IMG/VR virus record: IMGVR_UViG_3300028840_006907
Location: 64,001-128,000 of that record
Strand: one strand, 5' to 3'
Origin: a virus
DNA length: 64,000 bases
Position numbers and translations under genes: made by a program. Below, one piece after another: positions 7,683-30,025 of the stretch (the stretch's first letter is position 1; the number at the start of each line of letters is the position of its first letter). The notes under the pieces were generated by a model. The model searched no databases, was not told the DNA's origin, and saw only the letters and a list, made by a program, of their open reading frames with translations.

Positions 7683-9762
7683 TTATACCGCAGCCGACAG
7701 TATCCCGATAAAATTGATTAAGAACTTTAAATTGTTAAAGTCCATGACAACAAAAGGAGTCATCTTACCAATCCATGTCCAGTTCATACCCACAAATAGA
7801 TGTAACATGAAATGTGGATTTTGTAGCTGTGCTGAAGATGACAGAAAAACAGAAATGTCCCTTAAAAATGCTAAGAAGATCATCAGAAAATTAAAAAAAC
7901 TCGGTACTCAATCCGTAACCATCACCGGAGGAGGAGAACCACTCCTTTATCCTCATCTCCAAGAATTGTTTTCTCTGTTTAAAGATGCCGGGATAAAAAT
8001 CGGTTTTGTTACCAATGGCCTCTTATTAGGTAAATGTACCTATGAAGATGTAACCTGGTGTCGGATTTCTAATTCTGATGAAAGAAAAATGGACATGGAC
8101 TATTATCACACAATAGCTTATGCTGTTGAAGATAACCCAAACGTGGACTGGGCCTTTAGTCATGTCGTTTCTCCAAAACCAAATATCTCCGAAATAAAAC
8201 GGATCATAGAATTTGCCAATCTCCATGATTTTACCCATGTCCGATTAGTAGCTGATCTATTGAATTATAAAGAAGTAGATTTAATGCAGTTAAAAATCAC
8301 TCTTCGAGATGAAAATGTCGATGATGATAAAGTCATCTATCAAAGTAGAAATACCCCGCTCAGAGGCGGAGACTGTTATATATGCTATCTTAAACCCATG
8401 ATAGGGGCTGACTGTAATGTGTACGCTTGTTGTTTAGAGGCTAATGAACCTGTATTAATCCAGAGAAATAACGAAAGGATGTATTTATCTATAAAGGATG
8501 TTGTTCCAGGGGATTATGCTTGTGAATATGGAAAGATTTTAAATGTGTTTCATAAAGAGGGTGAAGAAGGCTTGGAAATAGTTTTGCAAAATAATAGGAC
8601 TATTTATGTTTCGAAAGATCATCTTATGCTTAAATTGACAAACCCTGAAATTAGACATAAGAGAAAGAAGTTATTATCTGACTATGAATTAGATACAATA
8701 GAATCTTCTGAATTAAGAATTGGAGATTTACTTCCGGTCAAATATAAATATGATATTAGTGAAATAAAAGAAGATACTATATCTGAAGAAGAAGCAGAAT
8801 TAATAGGATATTATGTAGCTGAAGGTTGGTCCAATGAACGAACTTGTATAGTTGATAAAAAATATCCTACTAGAACTACCACTATAGGATTTATGCTAGG
8901 GAAAGAGTCAAGAGAATATATAAGAAGATTTGAAGAAATTTGTGATATTTTGAATCTAAATTTTTCTATGACTGAACGTAGAACTGGTATGCAGTATCAG
9001 ATAGGTGCACATAAACCCTACGATGACTTAATTGTACACTGTGGTAATAAAGCAGAATTAAAAAAGATCCCTCCTTTTATTTTAAACGGCTCTGATAAAA
9101 TAAAGTGGAAATTTATTCAAGGCTATTTTGGAGGTGACGGGAATTTTCAAACTCCTTCTAAAAGCTATGATGGTTTTAAAATGAGAATGAGTACTGTCAG
9201 TAGACAACTAGCTAATGATATAATTTATCTCTTTTGTACTTTAAATATTCATGCTTCTATGAGAGTTGAGAGACGTGAAGGAAAAATGATAATAGAAGGA
9301 AGAGAGGTAAATGCTAAAGATCGGTATCATATAAATATAGGGGGAGCCTATAATTTAGAAAAAGCCCCATTCCTAAATGTAATTCAAACAAAAGAAAGAA
9401 GTCCTAAAAGAGCCCTCGGTTTTTTGAAAGATGAGGATAAGGGCATTATGTTTGTACCAGTTAAAGAGATCAGAGAGAAAAAGTTAGGAAAATTAGTAGA
9501 CATTCAAGTGGAAGGTTCAAATAAATTTATATCTTCATTTGGTATAATAGTTCATAATTGTGGCGTCCAGTATGCTCTTAAAAAGCCTTCAAAGAATCTT
9601 CCTAAGAAACTGAGCCTAGGAAGTGCTTTTGATCTTGAGAAGATAATTGAGAACAGTAATAAGCCCCTGGACGGGAGCATGTGTTATCGATGCTATTATA
9701 GTAATTATAACAAGATACTAGGATCCATCCTGGATGATACCGATCATATGGAGTTTGTATGA
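7669..9762 (+). CDS. radical SAM enzyme interrupted by an intein
   Basis: CNMKCGFC (CxxxCxxC) and a GGGEPLL SAM motif. The extein is 321 aa after removing residues encoded by 8431-9558. Confidence 0.85.
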   Translation: MNLTSYTAADSIPIKLIKNFKLLKSMTTKGVILPIHVQFIPTNRCNMKCGFCSCAEDDRKTEMSLKNAKKIIRKLKKLGTQSVTITGGGEPLLYPHLQELFSLFKDAGIKIGFVTNGLLLGKCTYEDVTWCRISNSDERKMDMDYYHTIAYAVEDNPNVDWAFSHVVSPKPNISEIKRIIEFANLHDFTHVRLVADLLNYKEVDLMQLKITLRDENVDDDKVIYQSRNTPLRGGDCYICYLKPMIGADCNVYACCLEANEPVLIQRNNERMYLSIKDVVPGDYACEYGKILNVFHKEGEEGLEIVLQNNRTIYVSKDHLMLKLTNPEIRHKRKKLLSDYELDTIESSELRIGDLLPVKYKYDISEIKEDTISEEEAELIGYYVAEGWSNERTCIVDKKYPTRTTTIGFMLGKESREYIRRFEEICDILNLNFSMTERRTGMQYQIGAHKPYDDLIVHCGNKAELKKIPPFILNGSDKIKWKFIQGYFGGDGNFQTPSKSYDGFKMRMSTVSRQLANDIIYLFCTLNIHASMRVERREGKMIIEGREVNAKDRYHINIGGAYNLEKAPFLNVIQTKERSPKRALGFLKDEDKGIMFVPVKEIREKKLGKLVDIQVEGSNKFISSFGIIVHNCGVQYALKKPSKNLPKKLSLGSAFDLEKIIENSNKPLDGSMCYRCYYSNYNKILGSILDDTDHMEFV
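8431..9558 (+). mobile_element. LAGLIDADG-type intein (376 aa) inside the radical SAM gene
   Basis: N-terminal junction YAC|CLEANEPVL; block B SKDH. Two LAGLIDADG motifs (LIGYYVAEGW, FIQGYFGGDGN). C-terminal junction GIIVHN|C. Confidence 0.85.
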
Positions 9763-10310
9763 TCCGTTATAAAGAGATCTATGAACGAGTATTTGACATA
9801 CCTCATTATTCCAGAAACCAAGACCGAAAGATTACCTGTTCCCAAGTACATAACTATTTAATAGGAACTGAAAAATCTATCATTGATATAGGATCGGGGC
9901 GTGGGCCTGTTCTTATAGAACTGCTGAATCATTTTCAGAGATCTCAGATATTGTCTTGTGATTTAAAAAAGTTCCATGATATTGAAGTCCCGTTCCTGAA
10001 ACTGGATTTAACTGAGTTCAAGGATCGGGAAGCAATATTGAGGGTCTTTCCACAGTTTGATTTCTTAACCTGTTTTGATGTCCTGGAACATATCGAGCGA
10101 CAGGAATTGCACGCTATTCTCAGATTCTTTAAAGAGCTATCTAAAAAACATCTAATTATTGTAGCAAATCACTCTGATAACTGGGGCCAGGAATTACATT
10201 TAATACAGGAGCCCATGGACTGGTGGGAGGAAAGTTTTGGTGAATATTTTAAGATATTGGATAAAAAGAGTATTCATAATGATAGAGCGTATGTATTCCA
10301 TTTAGAATGA
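9759..10310 (+). CDS. class I SAM-dependent methyltransferase
   Basis: IIDIGSGRGPV motif I; FDFLTCFDVLEHI motif. Confidence 0.7.
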   Translation: MIRYKEIYERVFDIPHYSRNQDRKITCSQVHNYLIGTEKSIIDIGSGRGPVLIELLNHFQRSQILSCDLKKFHDIEVPFLKLDLTEFKDREAILRVFPQFDFLTCFDVLEHIERQELHAILRFFKELSKKHLIIVANHSDNWGQELHLIQEPMDWWEESFGEYFKILDKKSIHNDRAYVFHLE

Positions 10311-10320
10311 GAGGTATAGG

Positions 10321-10572
10321 ATGTTTAAAGGACTGATCAATTCGATTAAGGAAGATAACGGTAATGCTTCTTCTACCAGATTTATTATGTATGGTACTGG
10401 AGCTGTTGTCTTAGGGACATATCTTTTTCATAACATACTTTCTGCAGTAAGAGGAGGAGAATTTATTGATTTCCCAGTAAACAGTGTCGTTGTTCTTGGT
10501 ATCGTTCTGACGGGTAAAGTTACACAGAAATTCGCTGAGTTTAAAGGTAGCAATGGGAAGACAGATGCTTAA
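10321..10572 (+). CDS. small membrane protein
   Basis: Two hydrophobic segments; ORF track. Confidence 0.5.
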   Translation: MFKGLINSIKEDNGNASSTRFIMYGTGAVVLGTYLFHNILSAVRGGEFIDFPVNSVVVLGIVLTGKVTQKFAEFKGSNGKTDA

Positions 10573-10726
10573 GTTTCTTCGTGCTTTAAAGGAAAAAATA
10601 AAACCAGCAAATCCTACTCGTAGAAGTACTGTGATTAAATATTTAATGAGTCACCCTTTTGATAAACACACAAAATTAATCCCATTTGATAAATATTTAA
10701 AAAATATCCGGAAAAAGCATTCATGA
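10565..10726 (+). CDS. small basic hypothetical protein (53 aa)
   Basis: ATG overlaps the upstream stop; hand-translated. Confidence 0.3.
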   Translation: MLKFLRALKEKIKPANPTRRSTVIKYLMSHPFDKHTKLIPFDKYLKNIRKKHS

Positions 10727-10976
10727 AATGTCCCTTTATATAGAAGGAGATTGTCATGAATGTAATAAAACTAGAAGACTGCAGGAAATATTTCAAAGAT
10801 GAAGGAAATTTTAGGAAATTTGTGGAAACTTTTGGAAATTTTTTTAAAAAAGTTTCTCTTATCTTATCCTTGGTGATGATATTATAGGCACAACTTTAAC
10901 TCCTGAGTCCACCAAGGAATATATTATCGAAAGAATTTTAAAGAGGGAAGATATCCTGATAAAGGTTATAGAGGAG

Positions 10977-11540
10977 TTATAGGGATTTATTTGCGTGTGG
11001 AAAAGGTTTAACCACAATTTCTCGATCCAGGAACTTGCACAATGTTGCATATTTATTTTTATCTTCAATATCTATGAGTAGGAATCGGGGTTTGTCTTTG
11101 AAGAACTCTATGATTTCTTCATTCCTCTTATGGTATCGATCTATTATTTCAGCTTTGTTCTCTGGAATAAATTCAATCTTCCATATCCAGTTATACATGA
11201 CTTGTGCATTTTTTAATTGAATCCAATTTAAAACTGAGTTAAACCATTTCTCGGGATCCCGGGTCAAATGAATGAAGTAGGCATCGGGGAACATATCATA
11301 GAGCATTTCATGACTCCCTTCTAAATTGAAAGGGATATCACAAAATAAATTGGCTGTATATTTTCTTAATCGAAAAGCTTTAAAAAGTTGAATCATATTT
11401 TCTTTGGAATGTTTAAGTCCACCTCCAAGATAGAGTCCATATGCTTTAGTAGAGGGAATAGGGTTGAAACCAAGCTTTTTTATGGCTTGTTCCATAGAGG
11501 TTGTACCGGTTTTATTTGAGCCTATACAAAAGACTTTCAT
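10977..11540 (-). CDS. sulfotransferase-family protein
   Basis: N-terminal MKVFCIGSNKTGTTS, a PAPS-binding P-loop-like motif typical of sulfotransferases. Confidence 0.55.
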   Translation of the reverse strand: MKVFCIGSNKTGTTSMEQAIKKLGFNPIPSTKAYGLYLGGGLKHSKENMIQLFKAFRLRKYTANLFCDIPFNLEGSHEMLYDMFPDAYFIHLTRDPEKWFNSVLNWIQLKNAQVMYNWIWKIEFIPENKAEIIDRYHKRNEEIIEFFKDKPRFLLIDIEDKNKYATLCKFLDREIVVKPFPHANKSL

Positions 11541-11983: not shown

Positions 11984-12025
11984 TCTAGGAATGTAAAGTA
12001 TTAGAGGATTATTAAGGGGAGGGAA

Positions 12026-15018
12026 ACCCCGCTCAGATGCAGGGAAGAAGATTTCATTAAGAAGTTTTAGGAAGAGCCCCGCAGAGGAGGAACCTCGCAA
12101 GATGCGGGGAAAAGGAACTTCAGGCAATTGGCTGGGATTAGCCCCGCGAAGGTGCGGGGAAAACAGTTTCCATGAACTATATTAGGGAGAGCCCCGTTGA
12201 CACGGGGAAAAACCCGTCTTTACTTAGTGAGATCGAGGAAGGAACAGCCCCGTTGATACGGGGATAAAATAATATGACTTTTACGAATCCTCTAGGGACA
12301 GCCCTGCAGAGTGCAGGGAAAAGTAACGTCTGGGAATTGTTTAGGATTAGCCCCGCGAAGGTGCGGGGAAAGCCATAGATTTTATATTGACACAGGAAAA
12401 ACCCCGGTATAGTCCGGGGAAAAGTACGTAATCAAGATGTAAGAGGATTAGACCCGGCGAGTCCGGGAAAAGATTGGCCCAATCACTATTAAGTAGGGTG
12501 GGATAGCCCCGCAGAATGCAGGGAATAGATGCCTCACTTCATACCACTGCGTCAACCCCAGTAGAGTCCGGGGAACATGAGTGTAAATCTCTGTCGTAGG
12601 TTCAACCCCGGAGAGATCCAGGGGAAATGGGTACAACTTTGTGTACAAGGGGTAGCCCCGGAGAAATCCGAGGAAAATGAGTGTAAATCTGTGTTGAGGG
12701 TCCAGCCCCGCTCAGTGCAGGGAATATTAAGGGTCAAAACCGGTTGCCCCTGCGTCAACCCCGGTGAAGTCCGGGGAACATGAGTGTAAATCTCTGTGGT
12801 AGGATCAACCCCGCAGAGTGCAGGGAAAAATTGAACTTTTTAATCAACCCTGTAACAGCCCCGGAGTCAGTTTTGACAAGTCCGGGGGAATATCACTTCG
12901 TAAAGGAGTGGCTGTCAAGGGGGCAACCCCACAGAGATGTGGGGGAAAGTAAGCCAACGTTCCGGCATAGGCATAGCCCCTGAATTTACAGAGGGCAATT
13001 TTTCCAGTGTCCAGAAGAAGATGCAGGGAGAACCCCGGAAAGTCCAGGGGAAAATGTGTCACAGAACAACTCTTTGTGATCTCCAGGGTGAACCTCGCAG
13101 AGGTGCGGGGGAAAAGTGTCAATGAATACCAGTATGAGTCAGCCCCGGTATAGCCCGGGAATAATTACTTCTAGTCTGATAGAAGGTGCAACCCCGGGAA
13201 GTCCGGGGAAATCGGTCATAGCCATCTGGACCAGGAAGAACCCCGGTGAGATCCGGGGAAAAGGACGTTTAAATCCTGACATAGTAGCTAACTGAGGCGT
13301 AGCTCCGGTCGGGTCAGCCCTGCAGAGAGCAGGGAACAAACATAGGTAATAAATCGGCACGTGACAGCCCCGCAGAGAGGCGGGGATATATAGCGTGAGT
13401 TGCAGGGTAAGGTTCAACCCTTGTTTACCAAGGGAAAAATACCGGCAGATAAGAATTTAGGATGACCCCCGGTGAAAGTCCGGGGAAAATAATTAATACG
13501 CAAAACAGCAGGGCCAGTCCCGCGAGATGCAGGGAATGTTCAGCCAGTTTGTGTAATATTTCAGGAGACGGTGGTGCAACCCTGTCAAGGACAGGGATAT
13601 GCAACATCTGTGGCTCTACGAGGATCAGCCCCGGCAAGTCCGGGGAATTATCTTTTTATAAATGCCAAAAATAACAGTTGGGAGGGGCCAATTCCGCTGA
13701 TGCAGAAAGACATTTCATAATTAATATATTTATGGAAGAGCCCCGGTGAAATCCGGGGAAGTCAAGTAATTACAGCTCGCTGACCACTGGGGGTAGCCCC
13801 GGTAAGATCCGGGGAAAAGTTTGTTTTGAAACAAACGCTAGGAACAGCCCCGCTCAGGTGCGGGAGAATCACTGCATATTTGGTTAATGGCCCCCCTGAG
13901 TCAATCCCGCTCAGGTGCGGGGAAAATAAAGAGATAGACTAATTCAATATGCAGGAAGAACCCCGCTATATGCAGGAAAATTTAAAAAGTATGGATATCT
14001 CCTTGAGTCAACCCCGGAGATCCAGGGAAATGTAGGCACTCGTTGTCCTTTGTCGAAGTGTGAAGGGCAAACCTCGTTGATACGAGGAACAAATTTAGTT
14101 TTACTTTTGAATAAAAGTGGTCAAGCCCCGCTCAGGTGCAGGGAATAGATAAGTATACCGACGATAGCCAGGACAGCACCTGTGGTTTAGCCCTGCATGT
14201 GCAGGGAATAGTTGAGTTGAAGATTGAAGAAAAAGATAAAGTAGGGTCAGCTCTGCATGTGCAGAGAATAGCCTTTCTTCAAGCGTTGACTTGGGAGTAG
14301 GTGGGGATCAGCCCTGCACATGCAGGGAATAGAATGGTGAATCAAATTCCATTTTGTCAAAGAACGGCGACAGCCCTGCCAGTGCAGGGAATATGATTTT
14401 AACGATGGTAAAATTGGGAAGGGGTCAGCCCTGCACATGCAGGGAATAGTCGCTAGTTCAAATCCAATCGCCCCGACAGGATCAGCCCTGCATACGCAGG
14501 GAATAGAAAATACTGACGATAAACTAGCGATATGGGATCAGCCCTGCATACGCAGGGATATAGCTTGACGAATGGCCGTTTTAATGCCAGGAGTAACCCC
14601 GCTGCGAGGAATAGTCATTTCAAATATATAGGTAAAGCCCCGCGAAAGAGCGGGGGTATAATATGGCGGATTTTGTTCTATTGGTGGAATCCGGGCCATC
14701 CCCGTAGATTGACACGGGGAGATCTTTTAGAAATCTACCAAGGTGCCTTTCCGGAGTCATCCCCGTATATACGGGGGAGATTTCAATTCAGGGAATTTCG
14801 GTACAAAATTGGTCGGTTTATCCCCGTATACACGGGGAATATTGTTTCAATAGGGCATAGCAGATCTAGGATCGGGGAATCCCCGCAGGGGCGGGGAACA
14901 TCTCGGATTTATTAATCAAATTCAAACGTTTTTCGGGGAATCCCCGCAGGGGCGGGGAACATTGTTTTAAGAGGTGGTAGTTACCTCGTAGGGGAATCCC
15001 CGCAGGGGCGGGGAACAT
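12026..15018 (-). CRISPR. CRISPR array 1 with highly heterogeneous I-E-like repeats (~55 units)
   Basis: Three identical leader-proximal repeats, GGGGAATCCCCGCAGGGGCGGGGAACAT, start at 14874, 14935 and 14991. Read on the minus strand they are ATGTTCCCCGCCCCTGCGGGGATTCCCC, close to the type I-E consensus GTGTTCCCCGCGCCAGCGGGGATAAACCG. Hairpin units then continue every 49-62 bp down to ~12026. Confidence 0.9.
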
Positions 15019-15057
15019 ACTAAGTCATAATGCCATTCAAATCAAAGGTTTATAGGA

Positions 15058-15112
15058 ACCCTAATTTTCTACCAAAGAAAAATGTACTTGTCATGTATAA
15101 ATGTCAAAGAGC
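15058..15112 (-). promoter_or_regulatory. CRISPR leader, array 1
   Basis: accctaattttctaccaaa..gtacttg.c.t.tataaatgtcaaagagc is nearly identical to 22626-22677. The minus-strand reading contains TTGACA (15102-15107). Confidence 0.7.
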
Positions 15113-15127
15113 GTCAGAGAGAAATCC

Positions 15128-17359
15128 CTAGTGGATATACCGAATCCATTCATATCGAATTTTCATCGTTTTATAAGGAGCTTTTTTTCTCCCTGGAAAT
15201 ATGTTTCCTTCAAAAAGGAAAAATTTTTGAACAATTTTAAATTCAGCGTTTGATGGTGTCAAGCTCTGTGGTGCATAATCCGAACGCCAGTAATTATTAC
15301 AATATATAAATTTTTCTTCTCTGTCTTTTTGTATAAGGCCCGGAAACACCACTAAAACTATCTTTTCGTTTTCAATAACAATATCCCCTTGATAAATAGC
15401 TATTTCTAAATCCAGACCATCCTGCTCTATCACACGAGCATATTTCGAGAGTTTCCCATCAATCTTTACTTTAGCTTTAGGGGGAATATCAAAAGTTATC
15501 CATTCACCTTTTATGTCCTTAATGCTTTGAATAGGTTTTTTAACTGGAATTTCTTGAAAGACATGATCTTGGTATTCTGCTTTTTTAAGGATTTCTCCAT
15601 CTTTTTCCATATTAAGCAATAAAGCCTTTTCCATGATGTCTTTAAGTTCATAGAGATCTTTTTCAGTTAAGGGCTCTTTTGTTCCGAATACGATGGAACC
15701 TACATTCTCTAATCGAGCGATTTTATCAAAACCCTGTTTCCGGACAAAGTCTATGGTAATATGTTCTATTTTTCTATTTCTTGAAAGTCTTATGATTCTT
15801 ACAAATTCAGTTTTAATTGTGTCTTTGAAATTATCAAAACTTAAATGATCTTCTACGTAGGGATGATACAAATCCGCTATAAGACTTAATAAAATTTCTA
15901 TGTCTTCAGGTTTATCCTGTTTACGGTTGTAATCATAAGCTTTAATAATTTCTTGTCTCATTTCCATTAATATATCAGGAGCCATTATTTCACTTAAACT
16001 GGTAGATCCTTTTTTGTCCCGATAAAAGGGAGCTGTTGGAAGTAAGGGAATCCTGATAGCAGCACAAAGTTCTGACATTACAATTGAGGTTAAGAACAAA
16101 TTCAATCTGTCTGAATATAATGCCCTGATATTATTACGTTCTTCTTTTTTAATAGGTGGAACATAAATGTATAACCATATTTTATCTTTTTTAGGGTAAC
16201 ATCTGAAAATACGAAACATTATTTGAGAGAAGGTCACCTGACTCTTTCCATAACTTGTATTATGTAAAACAGCAGCAGGAGGCCAATCATACCCTTCATA
16301 GAATATTCTGCAAGATACGGCGACCCAGTATTTTTTATGATTACGTCTCAATAACTCTCTATTTTTTTTCTGAGTTTCCGGTGTGACTAAATCCAGTACT
16401 TTGGACGCAGGATATATTTCGTGAATAGCTTTTAAATATTTTTTAAGGGTTCCTTCCTCTCTGAACCGGTTCCCCATGTCAGGTAATATGACAATGTGTC
16501 TTTGATCTTTGTGCTCTTTCATATATCTAATGATCTGAGTAAGGGGATCTTTCCTATAGTGAGTGAAACGGAAATTGAATTCTTTGATTTTTATGATTGA
16601 GAGATAGTCATTTAATGGGATAACCCATTTTTCAAAATGATGTTTATAAGCATTGGGGACTATTTCTCCTCTGTCTGTGCGGTGGTAAGTAGCTGTATAA
16701 AAATTTACGTTACAAGTAGGTTCATGGATGGTACATACATCTCTGACAAAATCACCCAAATGAGTGGAATCTAGTGGGGTTGATTTTGAATGATGGCATT
16801 CATCTACATGTACAGTTAAATTTCTAAGGGCTTTCTTTTTTTCATAGTTGGTTAATTTTTCCCAGGTCATGACAAACCCTCTATGGGTAGCTGTAGCAAT
16901 AGGGCCTGTTATATGTTTTTCATTGTACGGGTATTTTCGAGGATCTGCTAAAAGGAATTCTTTAAGTCCTTTAATGGATTGAGGGTTTTCACTATTGAAT
17001 TTATGTTCTTTTGGTACTTCCCACAATCTTACCATACCTTTATATTTGATTTTTATTTGTCTATTTTGGGATCTGCAGAAATTTTCACCTATTTCTATTG
17101 TTGGTGCGATAAAGATATGTTTTCGAGTATTTTTAGATATTATGATTTCATCCAGGGATATGCATACTGCTAAAAAAGTTTTGCCGACTCCCCCTGGTGC
17201 ATCAAAGATCATGTATCTGAATTTTTTCCCATATTCTTTTGCATTGCATTGCCAGCCAGAGGGTATCATGATCCCTGATTCAAGTTTTTTATTATAGGTA
17301 CCAAGGTCAACCGGTTCTATTTTAATAGATTGCTGGAAAAGCGGTAATAGCTTTTTCAT
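15128..17359 (-). CDS. SF2 DExH helicase, Cas3'-like position, no HD nuclease domain
   Basis: Motif I APGGVGKT, motif II DECHH, motif III TAT, motif VI-like QIMFRIFR. Only ~55 aa precede the Walker A, so there is no room for an HD domain. Last gene of the cas operon. Confidence 0.75.
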   Translation of the reverse strand: MKKLLPLFQQSIKIEPVDLGTYNKKLESGIMIPSGWQCNAKEYGKKFRYMIFDAPGGVGKTFLAVCISLDEIIISKNTRKHIFIAPTIEIGENFCRSQNRQIKIKYKGMVRLWEVPKEHKFNSENPQSIKGLKEFLLADPRKYPYNEKHITGPIATATHRGFVMTWEKLTNYEKKKALRNLTVHVDECHHSKSTPLDSTHLGDFVRDVCTIHEPTCNVNFYTATYHRTDRGEIVPNAYKHHFEKWVIPLNDYLSIIKIKEFNFRFTHYRKDPLTQIIRYMKEHKDQRHIVILPDMGNRFREEGTLKKYLKAIHEIYPASKVLDLVTPETQKKNRELLRRNHKKYWVAVSCRIFYEGYDWPPAAVLHNTSYGKSQVTFSQIMFRIFRCYPKKDKIWLYIYVPPIKKEERNNIRALYSDRLNLFLTSIVMSELCAAIRIPLLPTAPFYRDKKGSTSLSEIMAPDILMEMRQEIIKAYDYNRKQDKPEDIEILLSLIADLYHPYVEDHLSFDNFKDTIKTEFVRIIRLSRNRKIEHITIDFVRKQGFDKIARLENVGSIVFGTKEPLTEKDLYELKDIMEKALLLNMEKDGEILKKAEYQDHVFQEIPVKKPIQSIKDIKGEWITFDIPPKAKVKIDGKLSKYARVIEQDGLDLEIAIYQGDIVIENEKIVLVVFPGLIQKDREEKFIYCNNYWRSDYAPQSLTPSNAEFKIVQKFFLFEGNIFPGRKKAPYKTMKIRYEWIRYIH

Positions 17360-17444
17360 TGTCTTTTTCCTCTCAAATAAGTCCTGGAAAGCCTTTTCAG
17401 GGGCTTTCCAGGATTAATGTACTGTGTATTCTATATCAACACTT

Positions 17445-17600
17445 TCAATCGTTTTTATCAATCTCCGTGGCTAATACCGACATAAATGACATTCCGGTTC
17501 CTCCTGGTAATTCAATAATAGAAGGTCTTTTGATGTTCTCTTCTAAATTCCTAGAAGCGAGTTGCCAAGAATAGGCTTTTATAGTTTTTGTATTATTCAT
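17445..17600 (-). CDS. 51-aa ORF resembling the helicase N-terminus (degenerate Walker A)
   Basis: YSWQLA...IIELPGGTGMSFMSVLATEI aligns with SGWQCNA...MIFDAPGGVGKTFLAVCISLDEI of the helicase. GGAG lies upstream. Confidence 0.4.
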   Translation of the reverse strand: MNNTKTIKAYSWQLASRNLEENIKRPSIIELPGGTGMSFMSVLATEIDKND

Positions 17601-17628
17601 TTTAAAATCTCCATATAAAAGGTTTATT

Positions 17629-18273
17629 TTAATAAGATTTATACGGTGCAATAAGCATCATACCACATCCGAAACCTTTACTCTTACCAATTCCATTATA
17701 AATAGTATTCACAAAAAGATTTTTATTGACTACCTGAAGGACTCCTCGTAAATCAATACTGAAAAAAGATACAACTTTACCATCTTTTTTTTTGAATTTA
17801 CAGAATTGAAAAGATTGAACGGAATGCTTTTGAATCATATTTTTAAAACCGTAACTTTGGCCACGTTTCTGAAGCCAATTCTTTGAGGATTCGTGAGCAA
17901 TGAAATTCCAATTATAGGGTTCATCAAGAACTTTCATTTCATTTGCCAGATCCGTCATGATTGAAACCTTTTTCCTGGTTTTCAATTTACAAACTTCGGC
18001 ATTGAGTCTGAGATCGTATTGAAGAAATATTCCAGATTTTAAATTATTTAAATCGAATACTTTTGTTTGTGTAGTGTATTCGTCCTCTGGAGGATTTGGT
18101 TTCTTTTTTGATATGATATAAAGTTCACCATTATAGAGATAATAAAGGAAATCTCTTACCCTGTTAGATCTTTGATCACCAAAAAATTCCCAGACTTTTT
18201 GATGAAGCTCATATATACCTTCGGTGGGAGAATATCTTCTCAAGCTGTCACTGTAAATTTTACTCAGAAACAT
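17629..18273 (-). CDS. cas6e: Cas6e (CasE) crRNA endoribonuclease
   Basis: MFLSKIY...YELHQKVWEFF...RDFLY and C-terminal GIGKSKGFGCGMMLIAP parallel E. coli CasE (MYLSKV...LHQGLW...GIGPAKSMGCGLLSLAP). AGGAGG lies 6 nt upstream of the ATG at 18273. Confidence 0.85.
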   Translation of the reverse strand: MFLSKIYSDSLRRYSPTEGIYELHQKVWEFFGDQRSNRVRDFLYYLYNGELYIISKKKPNPPEDEYTTQTKVFDLNNLKSGIFLQYDLRLNAEVCKLKTRKKVSIMTDLANEMKVLDEPYNWNFIAHESSKNWLQKRGQSYGFKNMIQKHSVQSFQFCKFKKKDGKVVSFFSIDLRGVLQVVNKNLFVNTIYNGIGKSKGFGCGMMLIAPYKSY

Positions 18274-18910
18274 TCGATACCTCCTTCCATCCCATATACT
18301 CAATTCGGGATCGGTATTGTTTGGGACCGGTTACCTGATCAAAACGTTGATTGCTTTTTACTATTTTGATACTGGTATCGGTACCTTCCCAAAATATTCG
18401 GTTCTTTTCACGCCCTTTAAGACTACCATTAAGAAATTCAGGAAGAGAGTACTGTTCAAACGCCTCTGAGAGGCTCTCAGCCTTAACGATCTTAGGATCG
18501 GGTGGTATGTCATAGGAACAGCATTTCCTTCCAAGAAAGGGGGTATAGATGGGCCTATTAAGGGCTTCCATTATTTTCTTCAAAGTATAGGGACAGTTTT
18601 CATTCTCCCATATACATACGGTAAAGATGGCATTGACTAGGTAAAATCTATTCGAGACAATTCCTGGTCCGACTCTGACAATATGGAAATCTTTTAGAAT
18701 AGTACCAGGATTATCTTCCCTACAGGCAAATCCTAGTTGGGCAATCTGAGTTAATTCTTTCACCATTTCTCTTGAGACTCCAAGAGAAGCAGCGATTAAC
18801 CCGCTTACGCCAGATTTGGTAGGGTGATCATCTGTCTTTCGGGTATTACCCTGAAGGGGGAGACCCCAGGCGGATAGAGTACCCGAAAGAAGGAATAATA
18901 AATAATTCAT
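18260..18910 (-). CDS. cas5e: Cas5e (CasD)
   Basis: MNYLLFLLSGTLSAWGLP...TRKT..HPTKSGVSGLIAASLGVSRE parallels the Cas5e N-terminus (LRLAGPMQAWG...PTRSGLLGLLGACLGI). Confidence 0.85.
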   Translation of the reverse strand: MNYLLFLLSGTLSAWGLPLQGNTRKTDDHPTKSGVSGLIAASLGVSREMVKELTQIAQLGFACREDNPGTILKDFHIVRVGPGIVSNRFYLVNAIFTVCIWENENCPYTLKKIMEALNRPIYTPFLGRKCCSYDIPPDPKIVKAESLSEAFEQYSLPEFLNGSLKGREKNRIFWEGTDTSIKIVKSNQRFDQVTGPKQYRSRIEYMGWKEVSNVSE

Positions 18911-18933
18911 AATATTATAACTCCTGGTAACAA

Positions 18934-20019
18934 TTAGAAATCGATGAATTTAATAAGTTCGTTAAGTGATCCTTCTTTTGTGAGTACATTCAAGATCCTA
19001 TAATCCATTTCATGGTAACATGAATCAAAACTACTTTTCATGTCAAGAAGGGCTTTGACAGCATTTTCCATAACCGCAGGACCTTTAATAGGAGTATGGA
19101 AGGCTTGACAGAGACTTCGTGGGGCAGTTGGAGCTTTTTCGATCATAACGAATGCTGGCCATGTTTGACTATCAGCACATCTGTTTTTATTAGCTGAGGG
19201 GGATGAAGTGGTTAATACTTCGACTATCTGTCGGATGGTTTTGATAGCTAGTTCTTTATTACCTTGAAGATTTTTCGTTAAGAGCTTGGAATTGATTACA
19301 AAGAAACTATAATAGACACCCTGGGTAAAATAGAAATTATCTAGGTGACCTGAACCTTTGGTTCCTTCTAATCCAAGGTTATCGGTAGCTGTAAAATAGT
19401 CGGTTTGGACAGATCCTATATCATTGACAGTAAAAGCGAAATTTGAGGACAGTGAAGCTTCAACATCATATTGGGGCAGTTTTGCAATCATGCGACCGGT
19501 AAGGGCTGTTCTGATTCCTGTATTTTCTTTTAAAAAGAAGAATTCTTGATCAGTGGGTTTATGCCCCTCAATAATTTTGTCAATCAGTTCTTCAATATGT
19601 TGTCTTTCGCTCGGTTGAATTTTAATGGTTTCGGTTTTAAGAAGATCAACCTTTTTTTTCTTTTTCTTTGTATTTTTATCATCTTCTTTTTCAGTGTGCT
19701 TTTTGATATCAACAAAAGTACCAATAAATTTAAATGCGTATTCTTCAGCTTTTTTAGGTGATATTCCACCATCAATTAATCTTTTCTCGACATATTTTCC
19801 AATAAGAGGAGTCTGAAGACCTATATCGATTTCGCACCTTTCAAATAGAGCCTTGTTTAAATCATATTTTCGATTTTGTGAAGACGAATAACCTCGGTTG
19901 GTATCATTAAGTTTCATTGTTTTAGGACGTCCGTCCTGGCCTCGGTTTATGCTAGATACAGCTACACCAGTGAGAAGGTGAATTAACCAGTAGGGGTCTT
20001 TAATAATAGTTTTAGACAT
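18934..20019 (-). CDS. cas7e: Cas7e (CasC/Cse4) backbone subunit
   Basis: LIHLLTGVAVSSINRGQDGRPKT...RGYSSSQNRKYDLNKAL parallels CasC (HVLISHSPSCLNRDD...RISSQSLKRAMR). 361 aa, like CasC. Confidence 0.85.
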   Translation of the reverse strand: MSKTIIKDPYWLIHLLTGVAVSSINRGQDGRPKTMKLNDTNRGYSSSQNRKYDLNKALFERCEIDIGLQTPLIGKYVEKRLIDGGISPKKAEEYAFKFIGTFVDIKKHTEKEDDKNTKKKKKKVDLLKTETIKIQPSERQHIEELIDKIIEGHKPTDQEFFFLKENTGIRTALTGRMIAKLPQYDVEASLSSNFAFTVNDIGSVQTDYFTATDNLGLEGTKGSGHLDNFYFTQGVYYSFFVINSKLLTKNLQGNKELAIKTIRQIVEVLTTSSPSANKNRCADSQTWPAFVMIEKAPTAPRSLCQAFHTPIKGPAVMENAVKALLDMKSSFDSCYHEMDYRILNVLTKEGSLNELIKFIDF

Positions 20020-20045
20020 AAATACTCCTTGATATTTATTATTTA

Positions 20046-21989
20046 TTATATGTTATTTGAATATTCTCTTTCCCAGTAGAACTTGACATCTTTGCTCCAG
20101 TGGGCATACCCTTCCATGAAACTGATGATGTTAAATCCTTCCATTCGAGAAACAACATCAGCAAATACTTTCCAGTTTTTTTGTATATCCGTTTTATTGA
20201 AACTCATCATTTCGTCAACATGTCGGCGGTTAATTTTTTGAGAACCCATTTGGGCACCGAAAGATTGAGAAAAATCCAGATCCTTAGCTTTAAAAACAAT
20301 TAGTAGAAGAGGTACGAAAAGAGTCTTCATATCTTCTGATCTTAAAGCAGGGAAATGCATAGACATTTCTAAAATAAAATTCAAATAAAGGTCTTCATGT
20401 TTTAAGATATCGATGTCAAAACATCGGGTAAATACCCTATGTTTTTCTGTATTTCTAATAGTCCCGTACCAGGACAGGAATGGTTTGGTAAAGACCTGGT
20501 TAAAATGAGGTAGGTTTAATTTCCTGTATTCGATATGGGCGAAATTCTCATATTCTAATGGTTGTAGTTTAAGAGGTTTAACAACTTTTTTATTTAAGGT
20601 TTCGATAAATTGTTCCTTAAAATATTTCTGTAAACCTCTCTTTTCAGTACCTACATTTTTTTCAAATGTATCGAAAGCTTTAACTACCATCTTTTCCAAC
20701 CATTTTTCGATATTATGATTCTTGAGAACTTCATAGAAGTATTCTTCAGTTTCTGTCAGAAATTCGTGAAATATTAAAGGTTCGGTTTTATCAGTTCCCC
20801 AGAACTTTCTTATATAATTACAGGTATACCATCCTATAAGATATGAGTGTTCTCTGATATTTAAAGTAAACGCACTATCTTTATAGAGTTCTTCTGGGAT
20901 ATCGAATTTATTTTCCTCCCATCCAAAGAGTTTGGCTTTAGCCATATTATAACCGAAAGTCCATAATCCGAAATCAGTTATTCCAAGATATTCTCGGTTC
21001 TCCATGAAATGACTCACCACTAAAGCTGGAGTTAATTTTTTAGCTGGTAGTAGATAGGTCACAAGATCGAGATGGCTGGTAAAGTCCAGGGGTTTCCGGA
21101 AACCTGTTTCTTTGCCTTTTATAATGGGTGAAAGGATATGACGTGGTTTGACATAACAGTTACCATAATTCCTCGTTTTTATCTTTCTAACCATTAATTT
21201 GGAATGATTGCCACAGATAGTACATGATTCATCAAATTTATCAAAGATAAGATGAATACGTAGAGGCATTTCCCAGAGCGGGTAATAAGGATTCATCTCA
21301 TCCAGGGAAACAGTAGCTTTGTTTTTACTATCAACGGTATCACTAAGCCATGGGAGTGTTACACCTTTTGGATTTCCTCCGAATTCAAACATGGTCTTTT
21401 TAATAATAACATTAGACCATATTGTTTCCCATAACGTGGAACCGGTAATAATAGTGGTAAGAGAACCATTGGCACCGGCTGTTATCGAAGTACGGTATCC
21501 TTGGCCTCCCATAATGGCACTGAGTTGATTAAGATAAAGGGCAATTGTAGCACAGGATTGGCAAAAAGTATGTATCTTTGCTTTTTGGAAGAAATCTTTA
21601 CCAGCTTTAATTGTCGCTGTCCCTGGAGTATCAAAGAGGAGATTACCAACATTTACGATTCTTTCAAGGTCCTGTGGCCGTTTATCCTGTAAAAAACGAG
21701 GACCTTTGCCATCTAGTTCAAAGAGTTTTGGTTTAAGTTTTTCTAGGATGGCTTTTTGGTTTGGTGCTTTTTTGAATAGTTTTTTCCATTCTTTCTTACT
21801 TGTAGGAGCAAGATAAGTGTTGAAAAAACCTATGAGAAGCCGTACACCTACAGCATTGAAATCGGGTCTACCGAAATCGAGAGCTATTATAGGGTTATTA
21901 GGTTTTGAAGTTATTTTGTAGGGTGGAATGTTTTCCCTGGTACCGTCTTTTCGGATGACGGGGATCCAAGGGTCCTTAATTACATTCAT
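20046..21989 (-). CDS. cas8e: Cas8e (Cse1) large subunit with fused Cas11/Cse2-like C-terminal domain
   Basis: N-terminus MNVIKDPWIPV and CQSCATIALYLNQ...GGQGYR parallel Cse1 (NWIPV; CGGCTAIALFNQ...GGGFK). The C-terminal ~170 aa (SFGAQMGSQKINRRHVDEMM...HWSKDVKFYWEREY) parallels Cse2 (SLGRALANSGRINERRIFQLI...WWGKRERQQLLEDF). There is no separate cas11 gene. Confidence 0.8.
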   Translation of the reverse strand: MNVIKDPWIPVIRKDGTRENIPPYKITSKPNNPIIALDFGRPDFNAVGVRLLIGFFNTYLAPTSKKEWKKLFKKAPNQKAILEKLKPKLFELDGKGPRFLQDKRPQDLERIVNVGNLLFDTPGTATIKAGKDFFQKAKIHTFCQSCATIALYLNQLSAIMGGQGYRTSITAGANGSLTTIITGSTLWETIWSNVIIKKTMFEFGGNPKGVTLPWLSDTVDSKNKATVSLDEMNPYYPLWEMPLRIHLIFDKFDESCTICGNHSKLMVRKIKTRNYGNCYVKPRHILSPIIKGKETGFRKPLDFTSHLDLVTYLLPAKKLTPALVVSHFMENREYLGITDFGLWTFGYNMAKAKLFGWEENKFDIPEELYKDSAFTLNIREHSYLIGWYTCNYIRKFWGTDKTEPLIFHEFLTETEEYFYEVLKNHNIEKWLEKMVVKAFDTFEKNVGTEKRGLQKYFKEQFIETLNKKVVKPLKLQPLEYENFAHIEYRKLNLPHFNQVFTKPFLSWYGTIRNTEKHRVFTRCFDIDILKHEDLYLNFILEMSMHFPALRSEDMKTLFVPLLLIVFKAKDLDFSQSFGAQMGSQKINRRHVDEMMSFNKTDIQKNWKVFADVVSRMEGFNIISFMEGYAHWSKDVKFYWEREYSNNI

Positions 21990-22120
21990 ATGATACCTCC
22001 GCGATTTATGAATGGTTGCGGAAATTTAATTATTTATGTTTTTACTCAACTTATTTATGTTTTTTTGCTTAGCTGAGACTTTGATTTAATTTTTTAATTA
22101 ACCCATTAGTTATAAAGTTA

Positions 22121-22149
22121 ATTATAATCTAAAATAAATATAAATGCAA
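22121..22149 (-). promoter_or_regulatory. sigma70-like promoter upstream of cas8e
   Basis: Minus strand reads TTGCAT, 17 nt, TATAAT, about 130 nt upstream of the cas8e ATG. Confidence 0.55.
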
Positions 22150-22210
22150 CATTTTTTCAAGTACTTTATATATAACTATAATATTTCGAATTGTTTATAG
22201 CATGAGAAAT

Positions 22211-22236
22211 ATTTCCTCCGTTTACACGGAGGAAAT
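22211..22236. promoter_or_regulatory. perfect 10-bp inverted repeat between array 2 and the cas promoter
   Basis: atttcctccg tttaca cggaggaaat. Could terminate the array-2 transcript or act as an operator. Confidence 0.45.
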
Positions 22237-22266
22237 TTAGGATTATATCAGAGATGGGCTCTGAGA

Positions 22267-22586
22267 CAGCCCCGGTAAAGTCCAGGGAAATAAAAATTAG
22301 TGATAATTCGGGAATCAGCAGGAGGAGAGCATCAGCCCTGCGTATGCGGGGAATAGTGTTATCGTCTTACAGGATGTAAAGCAGAGACAGCCCCGCGTAT
22401 GCGGGGAATAGAAATTAATACATCTCATAAAATCTAGCATCAGCCCCGCGTATGCGGGGAATAGTTATTTATCTATACTTCCTACAACTCCCATAACGCA
22501 TCAGCCCCGCGTATGCGGGGAATAGCTCGTTGGTTTTCCCATTCCACAAAAGTTCAACGCATCAGCCCCGCGTATGCGGGGAATAG
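22267..22586 (-). CRISPR. CRISPR array 2 (6 repeats)
   Basis: GCATCAGCCCCGCGTATGCGGGGAATAG occurs at 22437, 22498 and 22559, with variants at 22329 and 22384 and a divergent unit at 22267. The two leader-proximal spacers are 33 nt. Minus-strand reading is CTATTCCCCGCATACGCGGGGCTGATGC. Confidence 0.9.
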
Positions 22587-22625
22587 ACTATAATATAATT
22601 AGTTGAAAATCAGAGAGTTACAAAG

Positions 22626-22677
22626 ACCCTAATTTTCTACCAAAAAAAGTACTTGCCGTTTATAAATGTCAAAGAGC
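22626..22677 (-). promoter_or_regulatory. CRISPR leader, array 2
   Basis: Near-identical copy of 15058-15112, including TTGACA on the minus strand (22667-22672). Confidence 0.7.
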
Positions 22678-22683
22678 TTATCT

Positions 22684-27032: not shown

Positions 27033-27322
27033 AATGCCTTCTTTCTTCTTTTTCGTCTATGTTCTAAAAGTATTTTTCCCATTTCATAATTTGTGATTTC
27101 TTTGGCACCCATTTCAATAGCTCTTTTTCTTCGGCTTTCTACCAAATCGAAATGAATAAAACCGGTTCTACTTTTTTGTATCCAGTTTTTTTTCATTCCA
27201 ATCTTTTCTGCAAATTCGAGTAATTCTTTAATACTAATATCAGAAAACATGTGACAGTTTTTCACATATCTTCCACGAAGTTTCCAAAGGTTATCTTTTA
27301 ATTCATCTACATATATTGTCAT
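27029..27322 (-). CDS. DUF4031-family protein
   Basis: IYVDEL...CHMFSD..EELLEFAEKIGMKKNWIQ...HFDL...RKRAIEMGA follows the DUF4031 pattern. Confidence 0.6.
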   Translation of the reverse strand: MTIYVDELKDNLWKLRGRYVKNCHMFSDISIKELLEFAEKIGMKKNWIQKSRTGFIHFDLVESRRKRAIEMGAKEITNYEMGKILLEHRRKRRKKAL

Positions 27323-27849
27323 GGTAATGTTAATCCGAATTTGTCAAAAATTCCTATGATTGCTTCAGCATTACCCATAGCATCATCTAGTGGATTATGG
27401 GTATGTTTTGTTTTTCGAAACTTCTTTTTCCAGTTCCTTTGAGCGTTGAATTTTTTTACAAGCCCACTATATAGATCCCCGATTCTCCTGGCACTATGTC
27501 CAAAAGGATTGTTATTACAAAAATGCCATAGATAATAATTTATGAATTGCCAGTCGAAAACGGGGTTATCCGAAATGAATACAATTCCTTGTTCTTTTTC
27601 ATTTATATTTTTTAACCATTGGTGAAATTTTTCTATTACTTTTTTGGGTGGAGGGAATTTTTTAACTTCTTTATATGAGAATCCTGAGACAACTAGAGCT
27701 GATTCGATAAATTTATTTGTTATAGGGCGTAATTGACTATAAAAAGTCCTGTTTAATTCTGGCTCTACAACTACCGCTCCGAAACAGACCATGGAATAAT
27801 CGCCGGGGCATGGACCGTCAGCTTCAATATCTACTGAGATAAGTTTCAT
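27319..27849 (-). CDS. DEDD-type 3'-5' exonuclease
   Basis: SVDIEADG (Exo I), FISDNPVFDWQF (Exo II), HNPLDDAMGNA (Exo III). Confidence 0.65.
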   Translation of the reverse strand: MKLISVDIEADGPCPGDYSMVCFGAVVVEPELNRTFYSQLRPITNKFIESALVVSGFSYKEVKKFPPPKKVIEKFHQWLKNINEKEQGIVFISDNPVFDWQFINYYLWHFCNNNPFGHSARRIGDLYSGLVKKFNAQRNWKKKFRKTKHTHNPLDDAMGNAEAIIGIFDKFGLTLP

Positions 27850-29102: not shown

Positions 29103-29312
29103 CTATTTCAACATTTTAAAATGCTTAAAGGTATCCCAAAAGAAATTTATTGTACATATGATAAAATAGCCAGGTATCAATTTTAATAAGAGTTCTTTTT
29201 TTGTTTTATATTCTCCTAACCATAAATGCCCAAGAACAACAGTCCATTGCATTAATAAAAAATTCGCTATTACAAATAATACCCATACTAATCCTATAGA
29301 CATACTTACCAC
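29103..29312 (-). CDS. small membrane protein
   Basis: Hydrophobic. Confidence 0.45.
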   Translation of the reverse strand: MVSMSIGLVWVLFVIANFLLMQWTVVLGHLWLGEYKTKKELLLKLIPGYFIICTINFFWDTFKHFKMLK

Positions 29313-30025
29313 ATTTCCCCAATGGCCTTTTTCTGTTTATTGGTTAATTTATAAACCAGCTTGCAATTAATACATTTCATTCTAGTTATATTCCCAAATA
29401 TATCATAAAGATCATCAGTTACCTTTCCAATCTTGTGACAAGAGTTTTGCTCACCTGCAGAAATGGTCCCATCGATATTAACTGATGGAGTGCACATTTT
29501 ACCCATCATTGCAAGACCCATCATAACTTGTGAAAGAGAGTTCGCCCCTGAATTTCGGCATAAGGATCTAAGGTTAAAACAATTAGGTGCTTTAGAGGTT
29601 ATTGGAAGTTCATTTTTAATGGCTCTTCCAAAGGGTGTTATCACTCTAAGCTGATGCTCATATGTAATATTAGGATGTTGTATAATAGGTACTTCTTTTG
29701 GATAGTACCGAGGATCATTGGTAATTTGAATATTTATTCCAATTTGAATGATTTCTTTTTTTAATGTTTCATCTTCAAGAAAAGTACCATTCGATAAAAG
29801 TGCTGGCATCAAACCTATATTTTTGGCTCTATTAATCATTTCAATAATGTCTGGATGTGAAGTTGGCTCTCCGCCTGTAAGCATTATTATAGGCATTTCA
29901 AGATTTTTTAAATATCGCAATGTCTGGTCATATGTTTTAAGATCCATATGTTCACCTTCCGGACATGCATTCACTGAACAATGAATGCAATTCATATGGC
30001 ATTTTTCAGTGACTCTTACGAGCAT
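29306..30025 (-). CDS. radical SAM enzyme
   Basis: CHMNCIHC (CxxxCxxC) and LTGGEPTSHP. Confidence 0.75.
   Translation of the reverse strand: MLVRVTEKCHMNCIHCSVNACPEGEHMDLKTYDQTLRYLKNLEMPIIMLTGGEPTSHPDIIEMINRAKNIGLMPALLSNGTFLEDETLKKEIIQIGINIQITNDPRYYPKEVPIIQHPNITYEHQLRVITPFGRAIKNELPITSKAPNCFNLRSLCRNSGANSLSQVMMGLAMMGKMCTPSVNIDGTISAGEQNSCHKIGKVTDDLYDIFGNITRMKCINCKLVYKLTNKQKKAIGEMW

Follow-up and report, generated by a model that had tools for sequence, protein, structure and literature searches.

A type I-E-derived Cascade module of a huge phage in which an unrelated SF2 helicase may take the place of Cas3

Here, we describe a CRISPR module carried by a 64-kb stretch of viral DNA, positions 64,001 to 128,000 of IMG/VR record IMGVR_UViG_3300028840_006907, which we call the window. 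Its minus strand encodes, between positions 15128 and 21989, cas8e, cas7e, cas5e, cas6e, a 51-amino acid (aa) open reading frame (ORF), and a 743-aa superfamily 2 (SF2) helicase, with a CRISPR array on each side. The explanation that we favor, and to which we give about an even chance, is that this is a huge-phage, type I-E-derived module in which an SF2 motor unrelated to Cas3 has taken the latter's place, and which interferes with its targets without cleaving them. We put forward only tentatively the fuller proposal that it represents an undescribed subtype-level variant. According to this, an I-E Cascade captured a phage cassette consisting of a small protein (ORF200, below) and an XPB/ResIII-like translocase, giving an RNA-guided, nuclease-less DNA motor that silences or clears host or rival DNA, convergent with type IV-A/CasDinG and served by arrays whose diversified repeats keep the Cas6e hairpin.

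The source of the window is a huge phage, because a helicase identical to its own is present on contigs of 388,651 and 469,617 bp; the window therefore holds ~15% of a genome of ~390-470 kb. We found no description in the literature of an I-E Cascade combined with this helicase, which may nevertheless be listed in a survey of CRISPR systems encoded by viruses that was published in Cell in 2022. Of the supplementary files of the 2020 paper on huge phages, the first 200 contain none of the terms “I-E,” “Cse1,” and “Cascade.”

The nature of the helicase is the first issue to be settled. An earlier reading of this DNA, made from its letters alone (hereafter, the sequence-only reading), had assigned motifs I, II (DECHH), III, and VI to the protein, had counted ~55 residues before the Walker A, and had seen no HD motif. 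All of this was borne out. Motif I is A54PGGVGKT61, which ~55 residues precede, and it is followed by motifs II (D186ECHH190), III (T222AT224, as TAT..R.D), V (E355GYDWPPA), and VI (Q379..R383..R386), the five being invariant in eight homologues. The dipeptide “HD” does not occur once in the 743 aa, and outside the motor core the only conserved polar residues are S416, R540, D545, Y656, K678, and K725.

Database comparisons place the protein away from Cas3. Its Pfam match is ResIII (PF04851; 8.9e-7, 29.4 bits against a cut-off of 22.5, aa 45-225), with the other matches, DEAD and PhoH, lying under their cut-offs. The Cas3 core model TIGR01587 gave 13.8 bits against a cut-off of 102.45, and searches of Pfam, NCBIfam, and PADLOC matched neither a nuclease domain nor a DinG model. 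When a profile of the helicase family was compared with all PDB sequences, it found the C-terminal lobe of XPB/Rad25 at 6e-5 and no Cas3 chain at E≤1; the closest PDB relatives are XPB, Hef, and RIG-I, and a comparison with predicted viral structures returned generic SF2 helicases only. On these grounds we rejected the protein as a truncated Cas3 or Cas3' and, as the respective models leave it unmatched, as a DinG or RecD. The comparisons indicate that it is not a trimmed Cas3 and that it comes from a widespread helicase family of large phages.

The C-terminal ~145 aa deserve separate mention, as this is where a nuclease could have been hidden. Modelled alone, they give a confident structure (predicted local distance difference test score, pLDDT, 84) that matches only KOW/Tudor/SH3-like barrels, and we regard them, on the strength of this model, as such a barrel. 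The invariant residues of the domain are only W, F, V, Y, L, K, P, and I, with no acidic residue and no His, and because of this they could not form a metal-dependent nuclease site of any known type. A hidden nuclease was rejected for both reasons. Profile searches and structure prediction over the whole protein, C-terminus included, thus revealed no HD domain and no nuclease domain of any other kind.

The second issue is whether the helicase belongs with the cas genes at all. The family is a large one (E≤1e-3 gives 1180 clusters, and E≤1e-30 gives 437), and most of its members do not adjoin cas genes; no Cascade genes were found within 10 kb of the distant members in 16 IMG/VR loci, locus L006, and loci L032/33, which are big-phage contigs. 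The order cas8e-cas7e-cas5e-cas6e-(ORF200)-helicase-(ORF110)-array is found, on the other hand, in relative loci L004, L005, L007, L024, L025, L027, L030, and L031, and L003, which ends within cas5e, shows the end of that gene, cas6e, the helicase, and a repeat region. The Cascade-linked order thus recurs in at least nine diverged loci, the helicases of which are 27-59% identical to that of the window; catalytic and ATPase motifs are conserved across these loci. Wherever there is enough sequence to judge, a helicase of this clade has cas6e on one side and a CRISPR array on the other.

These loci occupy at least three different neighborhoods: a CCA-adding enzyme and a winged-helix protein flank the module in L004 and L007; FtsK and DUF3150 in L024; and in the window and L030, DUF488 lies upstream of it, and a glycosyltransferase gene and one for a giant protein lie downstream. 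In a neighbor-joining tree, which is rough and carries no bootstrap values, 10 out of 10 helicases scored as CRISPR-linked (one of them, P0003, by indirect context only) fall into a single clade, and the 14 known unlinked ones all fall outside it. A hidden Markov model (HMM) of the C-terminal domain found that domain in 11 of 155 family representatives, all inside the CRISPR-linked clade, which indicates that a subclade of the Cascade-linked helicases, including that of the window, gained the SH3/KOW-like barrel. Because this domain is clade-specific and the gene order is kept in at least nine diverged loci and at least three contexts, we infer that the linkage of helicase and Cascade is functional. 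Conserved synteny, homologues of only 27-59% identity, and differing contexts all speak for the sequence-only reading, which had counted the helicase as part of the system and not as an unrelated neighbor. A search of IMG/VR for further copies of the module gave only unlinked relatives with the helicase as query and nothing with Cas8e, and a scan of metagenomes yielded two short fragments.

ORF200 and ORF110 complete the module in most relatives. The former, of ~200 aa and with 42 homologues, precedes the helicase in L004/5/7/24/25/27/30/31 (L004:9396-10004, L005:9399-10004, and L030:10001-10606, for example; the copy in L032 is at 10001-10618). It also adjoins CRISPR-unlinked helicases in L009/10/14/15/17/32, and its overlap with the helicase gene, a sign of translational coupling in the relatives, is often 4 nucleotides (nt), both in Cascade-linked loci and in L032/33. 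Helicases of this family are usually paired with it, and because many unlinked ones are also preceded by an ORF200 homologue, ORF200 and helicase appear, from their distribution, to be an older phage cassette. ORF200 matches nothing in Pfam or PHROG; it was rejected as the missing nuclease or as a methyltransferase, the signal for the latter being faint (E 0.19), and three FkbM methyltransferase matches were shown not to be homologues of it. ORF110, which lies between helicase and array in the relatives (L004:12289-12618, L005:12307-12639, L025:8138-8470, and L030:12894-13241), has ~110 aa with two tandem helix-turn-helix-like repeats and is probably a regulator.

The Cascade genes themselves present few difficulties. 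Type I-E-specific models in three libraries (Pfam, NCBIfam, and PADLOC) assign all four, as the sequence-only reading had proposed in calling the operon type I-E-like, and the minus-strand order and the positions that it had given were recovered for every element (Table 1). The gaps among the cas genes are 23-28 nt, cas5e and cas6e overlap, and all five genes, that is, the four of Cascade and the helicase, are intact. In addition to the matches in the table, Cas8e matches TIGR02547 (1.6e-33, above the cut-off of 70), and Cas7e reaches 155.9 bits with TIGR01869, under the strict cut-off of 178. Cas6e retains the His motif IYELHQKVW, which matches the catalytic-His motif of E. coli CasE, and its secondary matches to type IV Cas6 models of PADLOC are weak. 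As a separate observation, Cas7e has a lysine-rich insertion at aa ~105-130 (KKHTEKEDDKNTKKKKKKVD); no counterpart of it is known to us from E. coli CasC.

A separate cas11 gene is missing from the operon. The Cse1 models span only aa 1-375 of the 647-aa Cas8e, and the C-terminal ~175 aa can be aligned across seven homologues, including that of the window. One of these homologues has a Pfam Cse2 match (3.3e-6) in its C-terminus, and a faint one is precomputed for the L024 homologue; the C-terminus of the window's own Cas8e stays below significance for Cse2, and no Cse2 chain came up when PDB was searched with a profile. We consider the C-terminal ~175 aa likely, from the alignment, to be a Cas11/Cse2-like fusion. 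For the gene that had been labeled cas8e(-cas11), the Cas8e half is accordingly secured by the HMMs, and the Cas11 half draws on the homologues.

Table 1. Positions of the module's elements, and of an HD protein elsewhere in the window
Feature	Position	Strand	Description
CRISPR array 1	~12020-15018	-	~3 kb; ~51-58 I-E-like units
Array 1 leader	15019-15127	-	begins right after the helicase stop codon
SF2 helicase/translocase	15128-17359	-	743 aa; ResIII/XPB-like core, helical middle region, predicted C-terminal SH3/KOW-like barrel
12-bp G+C-rich hairpin	17382-17413	-	between 51-aa ORF and helicase ribosome-binding site; weak U tail
51-aa ORF	17445-17600	-	Q motif and degenerate Walker A, GGTGMS (Walker lysine gone)
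cas6e (CasE/Cse3), CRISPR RNA endonuclease	17629-18273	-	214 aa (alternative upper coordinate 18303); TIGR01907 3.9e-34, 118.8 bits (cut-off 45)
cas5e (CasD)	18260-18910	-	TIGR01868 1.7e-35, 122.8 bits (cut-off 69); PADLOC Cas5e 6.3e-39
cas7e (Cse4/CasC)	18934-20019	-	Pfam PF09344 (Cas_CT1975) 1.1e-52; PADLOC Cas7e 2.5e-53
cas8e (Cse1)	20046-21989	-	647 aa; Pfam Cse1 PF09481 4.6e-48; PADLOC Cas8e 3.9e-55
AT-rich intergenic region with promoter-like site, 5' of cas8e	21990-22210	-	TTGAAA-18-TATTTT at 22160-22131; consensus match only
CRISPR array 2	22211-22588	-	6-7 units; spacers 24-36 nt
Array 2 leader with TTGACA box	22589-22680	-	homologous to array 1 leader
OB-fold and HD protein, YhaM-like	31317-32270	-	317 aa; PF01336 2.7e-9; PF01966 2.9e-9

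The absences matter as much as the genes present, and they refer throughout to the 64-kb window and the 10-kb flanks of the relatives' loci. No Cas1, Cas2, or Cas4 model of PADLOC matched at E≤0.01 among the 71 other window ORFs of at least 75 aa (among the best 25 of the 29 matching families, the other four ranking at the weak end), and cas1, cas2, and cas3 are not annotated in the loci of the relatives. The sequence-only reading had likewise noted that adaptation genes and a Cas3 nuclease are absent from the window; the operon has no cas3, and the helicase scores far under the cut-off of the Cas3 model. The PADLOC models for Cas3, Cas3b, and Cas3-HD each have one weak member in the window (E 0.0009-0.0035), and all of these matches probably come from the OB-fold and HD protein, the sole HD protein of the window. 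We rejected this as a Cas3'': it is YhaM-like, lies 9 kb from the cas operon, and is not conserved with the module. Two other nucleases are encoded outside the operon, an HNH protein (145-441) and a DEDDh exonuclease (27319-27849). In none of the relative loci inspected is a nuclease gene part of the conserved module, and the Pfam, NCBIfam, and PADLOC searches showed neither transposase genes nor an HNH insertion in Cas5 or Cas8.

Next to the genes, the arrays are the most unusual part of the module. Canonical I-E arrays have uniform 29-nt repeats, an 8-nt handle, and 32-33-nt spacers. In the window, the I-E-type units are ~29 nt long and combine a G+C-rich hairpin of 6 bp with an 8-nt 5' handle, and the spacers range overall from 19 to 36 nt, the hairpin architecture and unit length being I-E-type. 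In array 2, the repeat of the first four units is the 29-mer CTATTCCCCGCATACGCGGGGCTGATGCG or differs from it slightly at the 3' end, and the last unit is a degenerate, terminator-like hairpin (22236-22211). The two leaders are homologous over ~115 nt, with identities of 71% (D12) and 89% (D15). In array 1, the G+C content of which is ~50% against 33% for the genome, stems such as CCCCGC/GCGGGG, CCCTGC/GCAGGG, CCCCGG/CCGGGG, and CCCCGT/ACGGGG alternate with others, and loops and 8-nt 5' handles differ between units. Because the stem changes are compensatory and preserve the hairpin, the hairpins would be kept under selection. One array unit has the handle ATAAACCG, which is the E. coli handle; none of the CRISPR-DR families of Rfam is matched by the repeats.

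Array 1 has spacers of 26-34 nt close to its leader, and most of those in its distal half are 19-20 nt long; a Cas1-Cas2 ruler does not appear to have set these lengths. At 12544-12831 on the minus strand, three near-identical 19-nt spacers, ACCACAGAGATTTACACTC, TCAACACAGATTTACACTC, and ACGACAGAGATTTACACTC, stand in an ~85-nt segmental repeat (D8), which suggests that it was duplication with divergence, and not adaptation, that enlarged the array. The array of L030, a 512-kb relative, is similar: at 13367-17200 it has ~65 units with irregular spacers of mostly 21-35 nt, its distal units change their stem from CCCCG(C) to CCCAC/GTGGG, and some of its spacers are duplicated (14113/14509 and 14688/15291, for instance). 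Since this array shows the same repeat diversification, we consider the latter a trait of the phage lineage and not an assembly artefact. The array of L024 is fully regular and of I-E type, with 29-nt repeats and 32-33-nt spacers.

Taken as a working model, the module would operate as follows. Array transcripts would be cut by Cas6e at the repeat hairpins, and Cascade loaded with the products would form R-loops on matching double-stranded DNA. The helicase would then be recruited, probably through its clade-specific C-terminal domain, which would dock on Cas8e-Cas11 or on the displaced strand, and would translocate away from the R-loop at the expense of ATP. In doing so, it would block or strip RNA polymerase or replisomes, so that host or competitor genes would be silenced with no cleavage; as the module contains no nuclease, interference of this kind would be its most likely outcome. 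Any acquisition of spacers would depend on machinery provided in trans or on recombination.

How does such a module relate to known systems? Its likeness to canonical type I-E (E. coli and T. fusca) lies in Cas8e, Cas7e, Cas5e, and Cas6e as recognized by I-E HMMs, in a likely Cas11-like module, in I-E-type repeat units, and in the order cas8e-(cas11)-cas7e-cas5e-cas6e. Canonical systems, in contrast, have Cas3 and Cas1-Cas2, none of which is present in the window or the relatives' loci; in the phage, Cas11 is likely fused to Cas8e, repeats, handles, and spacer lengths are heterogeneous, and an unrelated SF2 helicase follows cas6e. No Cas3, the signature protein of type I, was thus found beside its I-E effector. 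We would class it, by analogy, as a Cas3-less type I-E variant that is mechanistically closest to type IV-A.

Type IV-A, which silences without a nuclease through DinG (PMC11656645, PMC11519345), offers what we see as the best functional analogy. It shares with the phage module a class 1 effector, a dedicated helicase other than Cas3, the lack of a nuclease and, usually, of an adaptation module, and residence on a mobile element. It differs in that the effector here is an I-E Cascade and not Csf1/Csf2/Csf3, the element a phage and not a plasmid, and the helicase not DinG. The idea in print that comes nearest is a type I-C variant of huge phages, which also carries a helicase in the place of Cas3 (Al-Shayeb et al. 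2020, PMC7162821). This variant has in common with the present module the huge-phage host, a type I-derived Cascade without Cas1/Cas2, and the substituting helicase; it relies on Cas5d-type processing and has no Cas6, whereas the window has Cas6e and the candidate Cas8e-Cas11 fusion. CRISPR-associated transposons (I-F3, I-B, and others) and HNH-Cascades (Cas8-HNH and Cas5-HNH; PMC10910872) similarly keep Cascade as an RNA-guided binder and swap Cas3, but the replacement here is a motor protein rather than a nuclease or transposase. Finally, XPB/Rad25, Hef/FANCM, RIG-I-like proteins, and the type III restriction translocase Res (ResIII) share the DECH box and the TATxxRxD and EGxDxP motifs with the phage helicase at an identity of only 12-16%. 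The latter lacks the damage-recognition domain, the thumb, the RIG-I C-terminal domain, and the Res endonuclease, and has a helical middle and an SH3/KOW-like C-terminus of its own.

Several observations weigh against a cleavage-free, helicase-driven interference module and should be borne in mind. The window is 64 kb of a genome of ~390-470 kb, and a nuclease or cas1-cas2 may lie elsewhere. The AlphaFold model of the full-length helicase is only moderate (pLDDT 67). Whereas ORF200 and ORF110 are conserved in most relatives, the window has neither; tblastn found ORF200 nowhere in its 64 kb, and L003, the nearest relative, is likewise without both, which have been lost in the two. For this reason, the copy in the window could be a reduced or decaying one. 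The repeats, and above all the 8-nt 5' handles, are variable, and with the many 19-20-nt distal spacers they fit a canonical Cascade poorly; much of array 1 may not be used as guides.

The hairpin that separates the Cascade genes from the helicase in the window is a further point of this kind. Its predicted RNA fold is strong (centroid -21.8 kcal/mol, z = -3.9 against shuffles), and co-transcription of Cascade and helicase in the window is consequently only putative. Possible roles for it are those of attenuator, stabilizer, and processing site; in the first or the last of these, it could set the ratio of helicase to Cascade. The 51-aa ORF that stands upstream of it aligns with positions 29-71 of the helicase family (hhalign; E 2.3e-4, probability 44%) and, by tblastn, with the N-terminus of P0008 (41% identity over 44 aa). 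To judge from these alignments, it is probably the remnant of the N-terminus of a second helicase, sited where the relatives have ORF200. Two other identities, a small Cas protein and an ORF200 remnant, were rejected; with ORF200 it does not align.

Targeting, too, is putative, as no protospacers were found in GenBank phages. None was found either in the window or any fetched locus, spacers of the relatives against the window included, or in IMG/VR, in which three spacers were searched. A search of JGI metagenomes with one spacer was also negative, a weak result given that it did not return the phage's own contig.

What other explanations should be considered? The one that survives best, although we think it unlikely, is that Cascade and the helicase work with a nuclease supplied in trans (a host I-E Cas3, RecBCD, or a phage nuclease encoded elsewhere), so that the target is degraded and not silenced. 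Phage CRISPR systems are often incomplete and are thought to be complemented by the host (PMC7162821), and the classical I-E-type repeats, together with the one handle ATAAACCG, make compatibility with a host I-E Cas3 plausible. Yet neither leader-proximal repeat of the two arrays has an exact match in 185,579 species genomes, and no host array was found; moreover, a host Cas3 already has its own helicase, next to which a dedicated, linked one would be redundant. As to a nuclease of the phage, helicases can carry one, as in type IV-A DinG-HNH (PMC10910872), and the window does encode the OB-fold and HD protein, the HNH protein, and the DEDDh exonuclease outside the operon. No nuclease gene belongs to the conserved module at any locus, however, and the HD protein is YhaM-like, 9 kb off, and matches Cas3-HD only at E ~1e-3.

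We regard as improbable an explanation in which the module is an anti-CRISPR decoy, with dozens of divergent hairpins and the Cascade proteins sequestering, as RNA anti-CRISPRs do, host Cas6e, Cascade subunits, Cas3, or CRISPR RNAs (crRNAs), or in which the array is simply decaying, the helicase in either case being no effector. The extreme diversity of repeats and handles, the irregular spacer lengths, the near-duplicate 19-nt spacers, the missing targets, and the loss of ORF200 and ORF110 from the window would all be at home in it, and there is precedent for inhibition of host CRISPR by cas homologues and solitary repeat units of viral origin (PMC11656645; bioRxiv 10.1101/2023.06.24.545427). 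Such an explanation sits poorly, however, with five intact genes, with catalytic and ATPase motifs conserved at 27-59% helicase identity, and with the compensatory stem changes, which point to hairpins under selection. Both arrays also have conserved leaders, the array of L024 is fully regular, and a decoy would need neither a Cas7 backbone nor a dedicated helicase.

Rather doubtful, too, is a role of the helicase in servicing the crRNA complex, either by removing Cascade or R-loops (for recycling, or to protect the phage's own genome) or by aiding R-loop formation on modified or compacted DNA. T4 UvsW, which dissolves R-loops, would be the model for such a factor, and the ancestral ORF200-helicase cassette works in CRISPR-less phages, so that its basic activity would be a general DNA transaction. 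No canonical I-E system requires a factor of this kind, though, and the clade-specific gain of a domain and the strict position between cas6e and array are what we would expect of an effector that replaces Cas3. This role overlaps with the explanation that we favor, and sequence alone does not separate the two. Lastly, it is very improbable that the helicase is just a neighboring replication or recombination gene of the phage with no functional tie to the cas genes: most family members do lie apart from cas genes, a hairpin parts the two in the window, and the window and L030 share their flanking synteny, but the order is kept in at least three unrelated neighborhoods (L004/L007, L024, and the window/L030 group), always with the helicase between cas6e and array where there is enough sequence, and the linked helicases are monophyletic in the rough tree, many of them with a private C-terminal domain.

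Some neighboring genes may be of interest to other workers. Past array 1's distal end, the plus strand encodes a 1514-aa protein (2341-6885; function unknown). It is followed, at 6924-11540, by a cluster of glycosyltransferase, radical SAM protein, methyltransferase, and sulfotransferase genes, which is syntenic with L003 and partly with L030 and may serve surface or DNA modification. The radical SAM protein at 7669-9762 on the plus strand has 697 aa and weak precomputed intein and LAGLIDADG matches; because its homologue in L003 has only 322 aa and no such matches, an intein insertion in the window's copy is suggested by the comparison. The viperin-like (pVip) models of PADLOC match two window ORFs, presumably this radical SAM protein and another at 29306-30025.

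If the Cas3-less, helicase-driven module is what we believe it to be, it would be a further independent helicase swap in class 1, beside the DinG of type IV-A, the RecD of some type IV variants, and the I-C variant of huge phages, and the view of “guide complex plus motor” as a recurrent, selectable design of mobile elements would gain strength. The donor of the helicase can be traced, being a common large-phage cassette, and the C-terminal domain that it acquired may mark the interface with Cascade. With its five genes and without ORF200 and ORF110, the version in the window would be a natural minimal construct for studying the role of the helicase on DNA-bound Cascade, and a compact Cascade with a non-nucleolytic motor could serve as a programmable tool for silencing or for clearing roadblocks. 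For the biology of huge phages, the module bears on how they may use CRISPR against hosts and competitors without cutting DNA.

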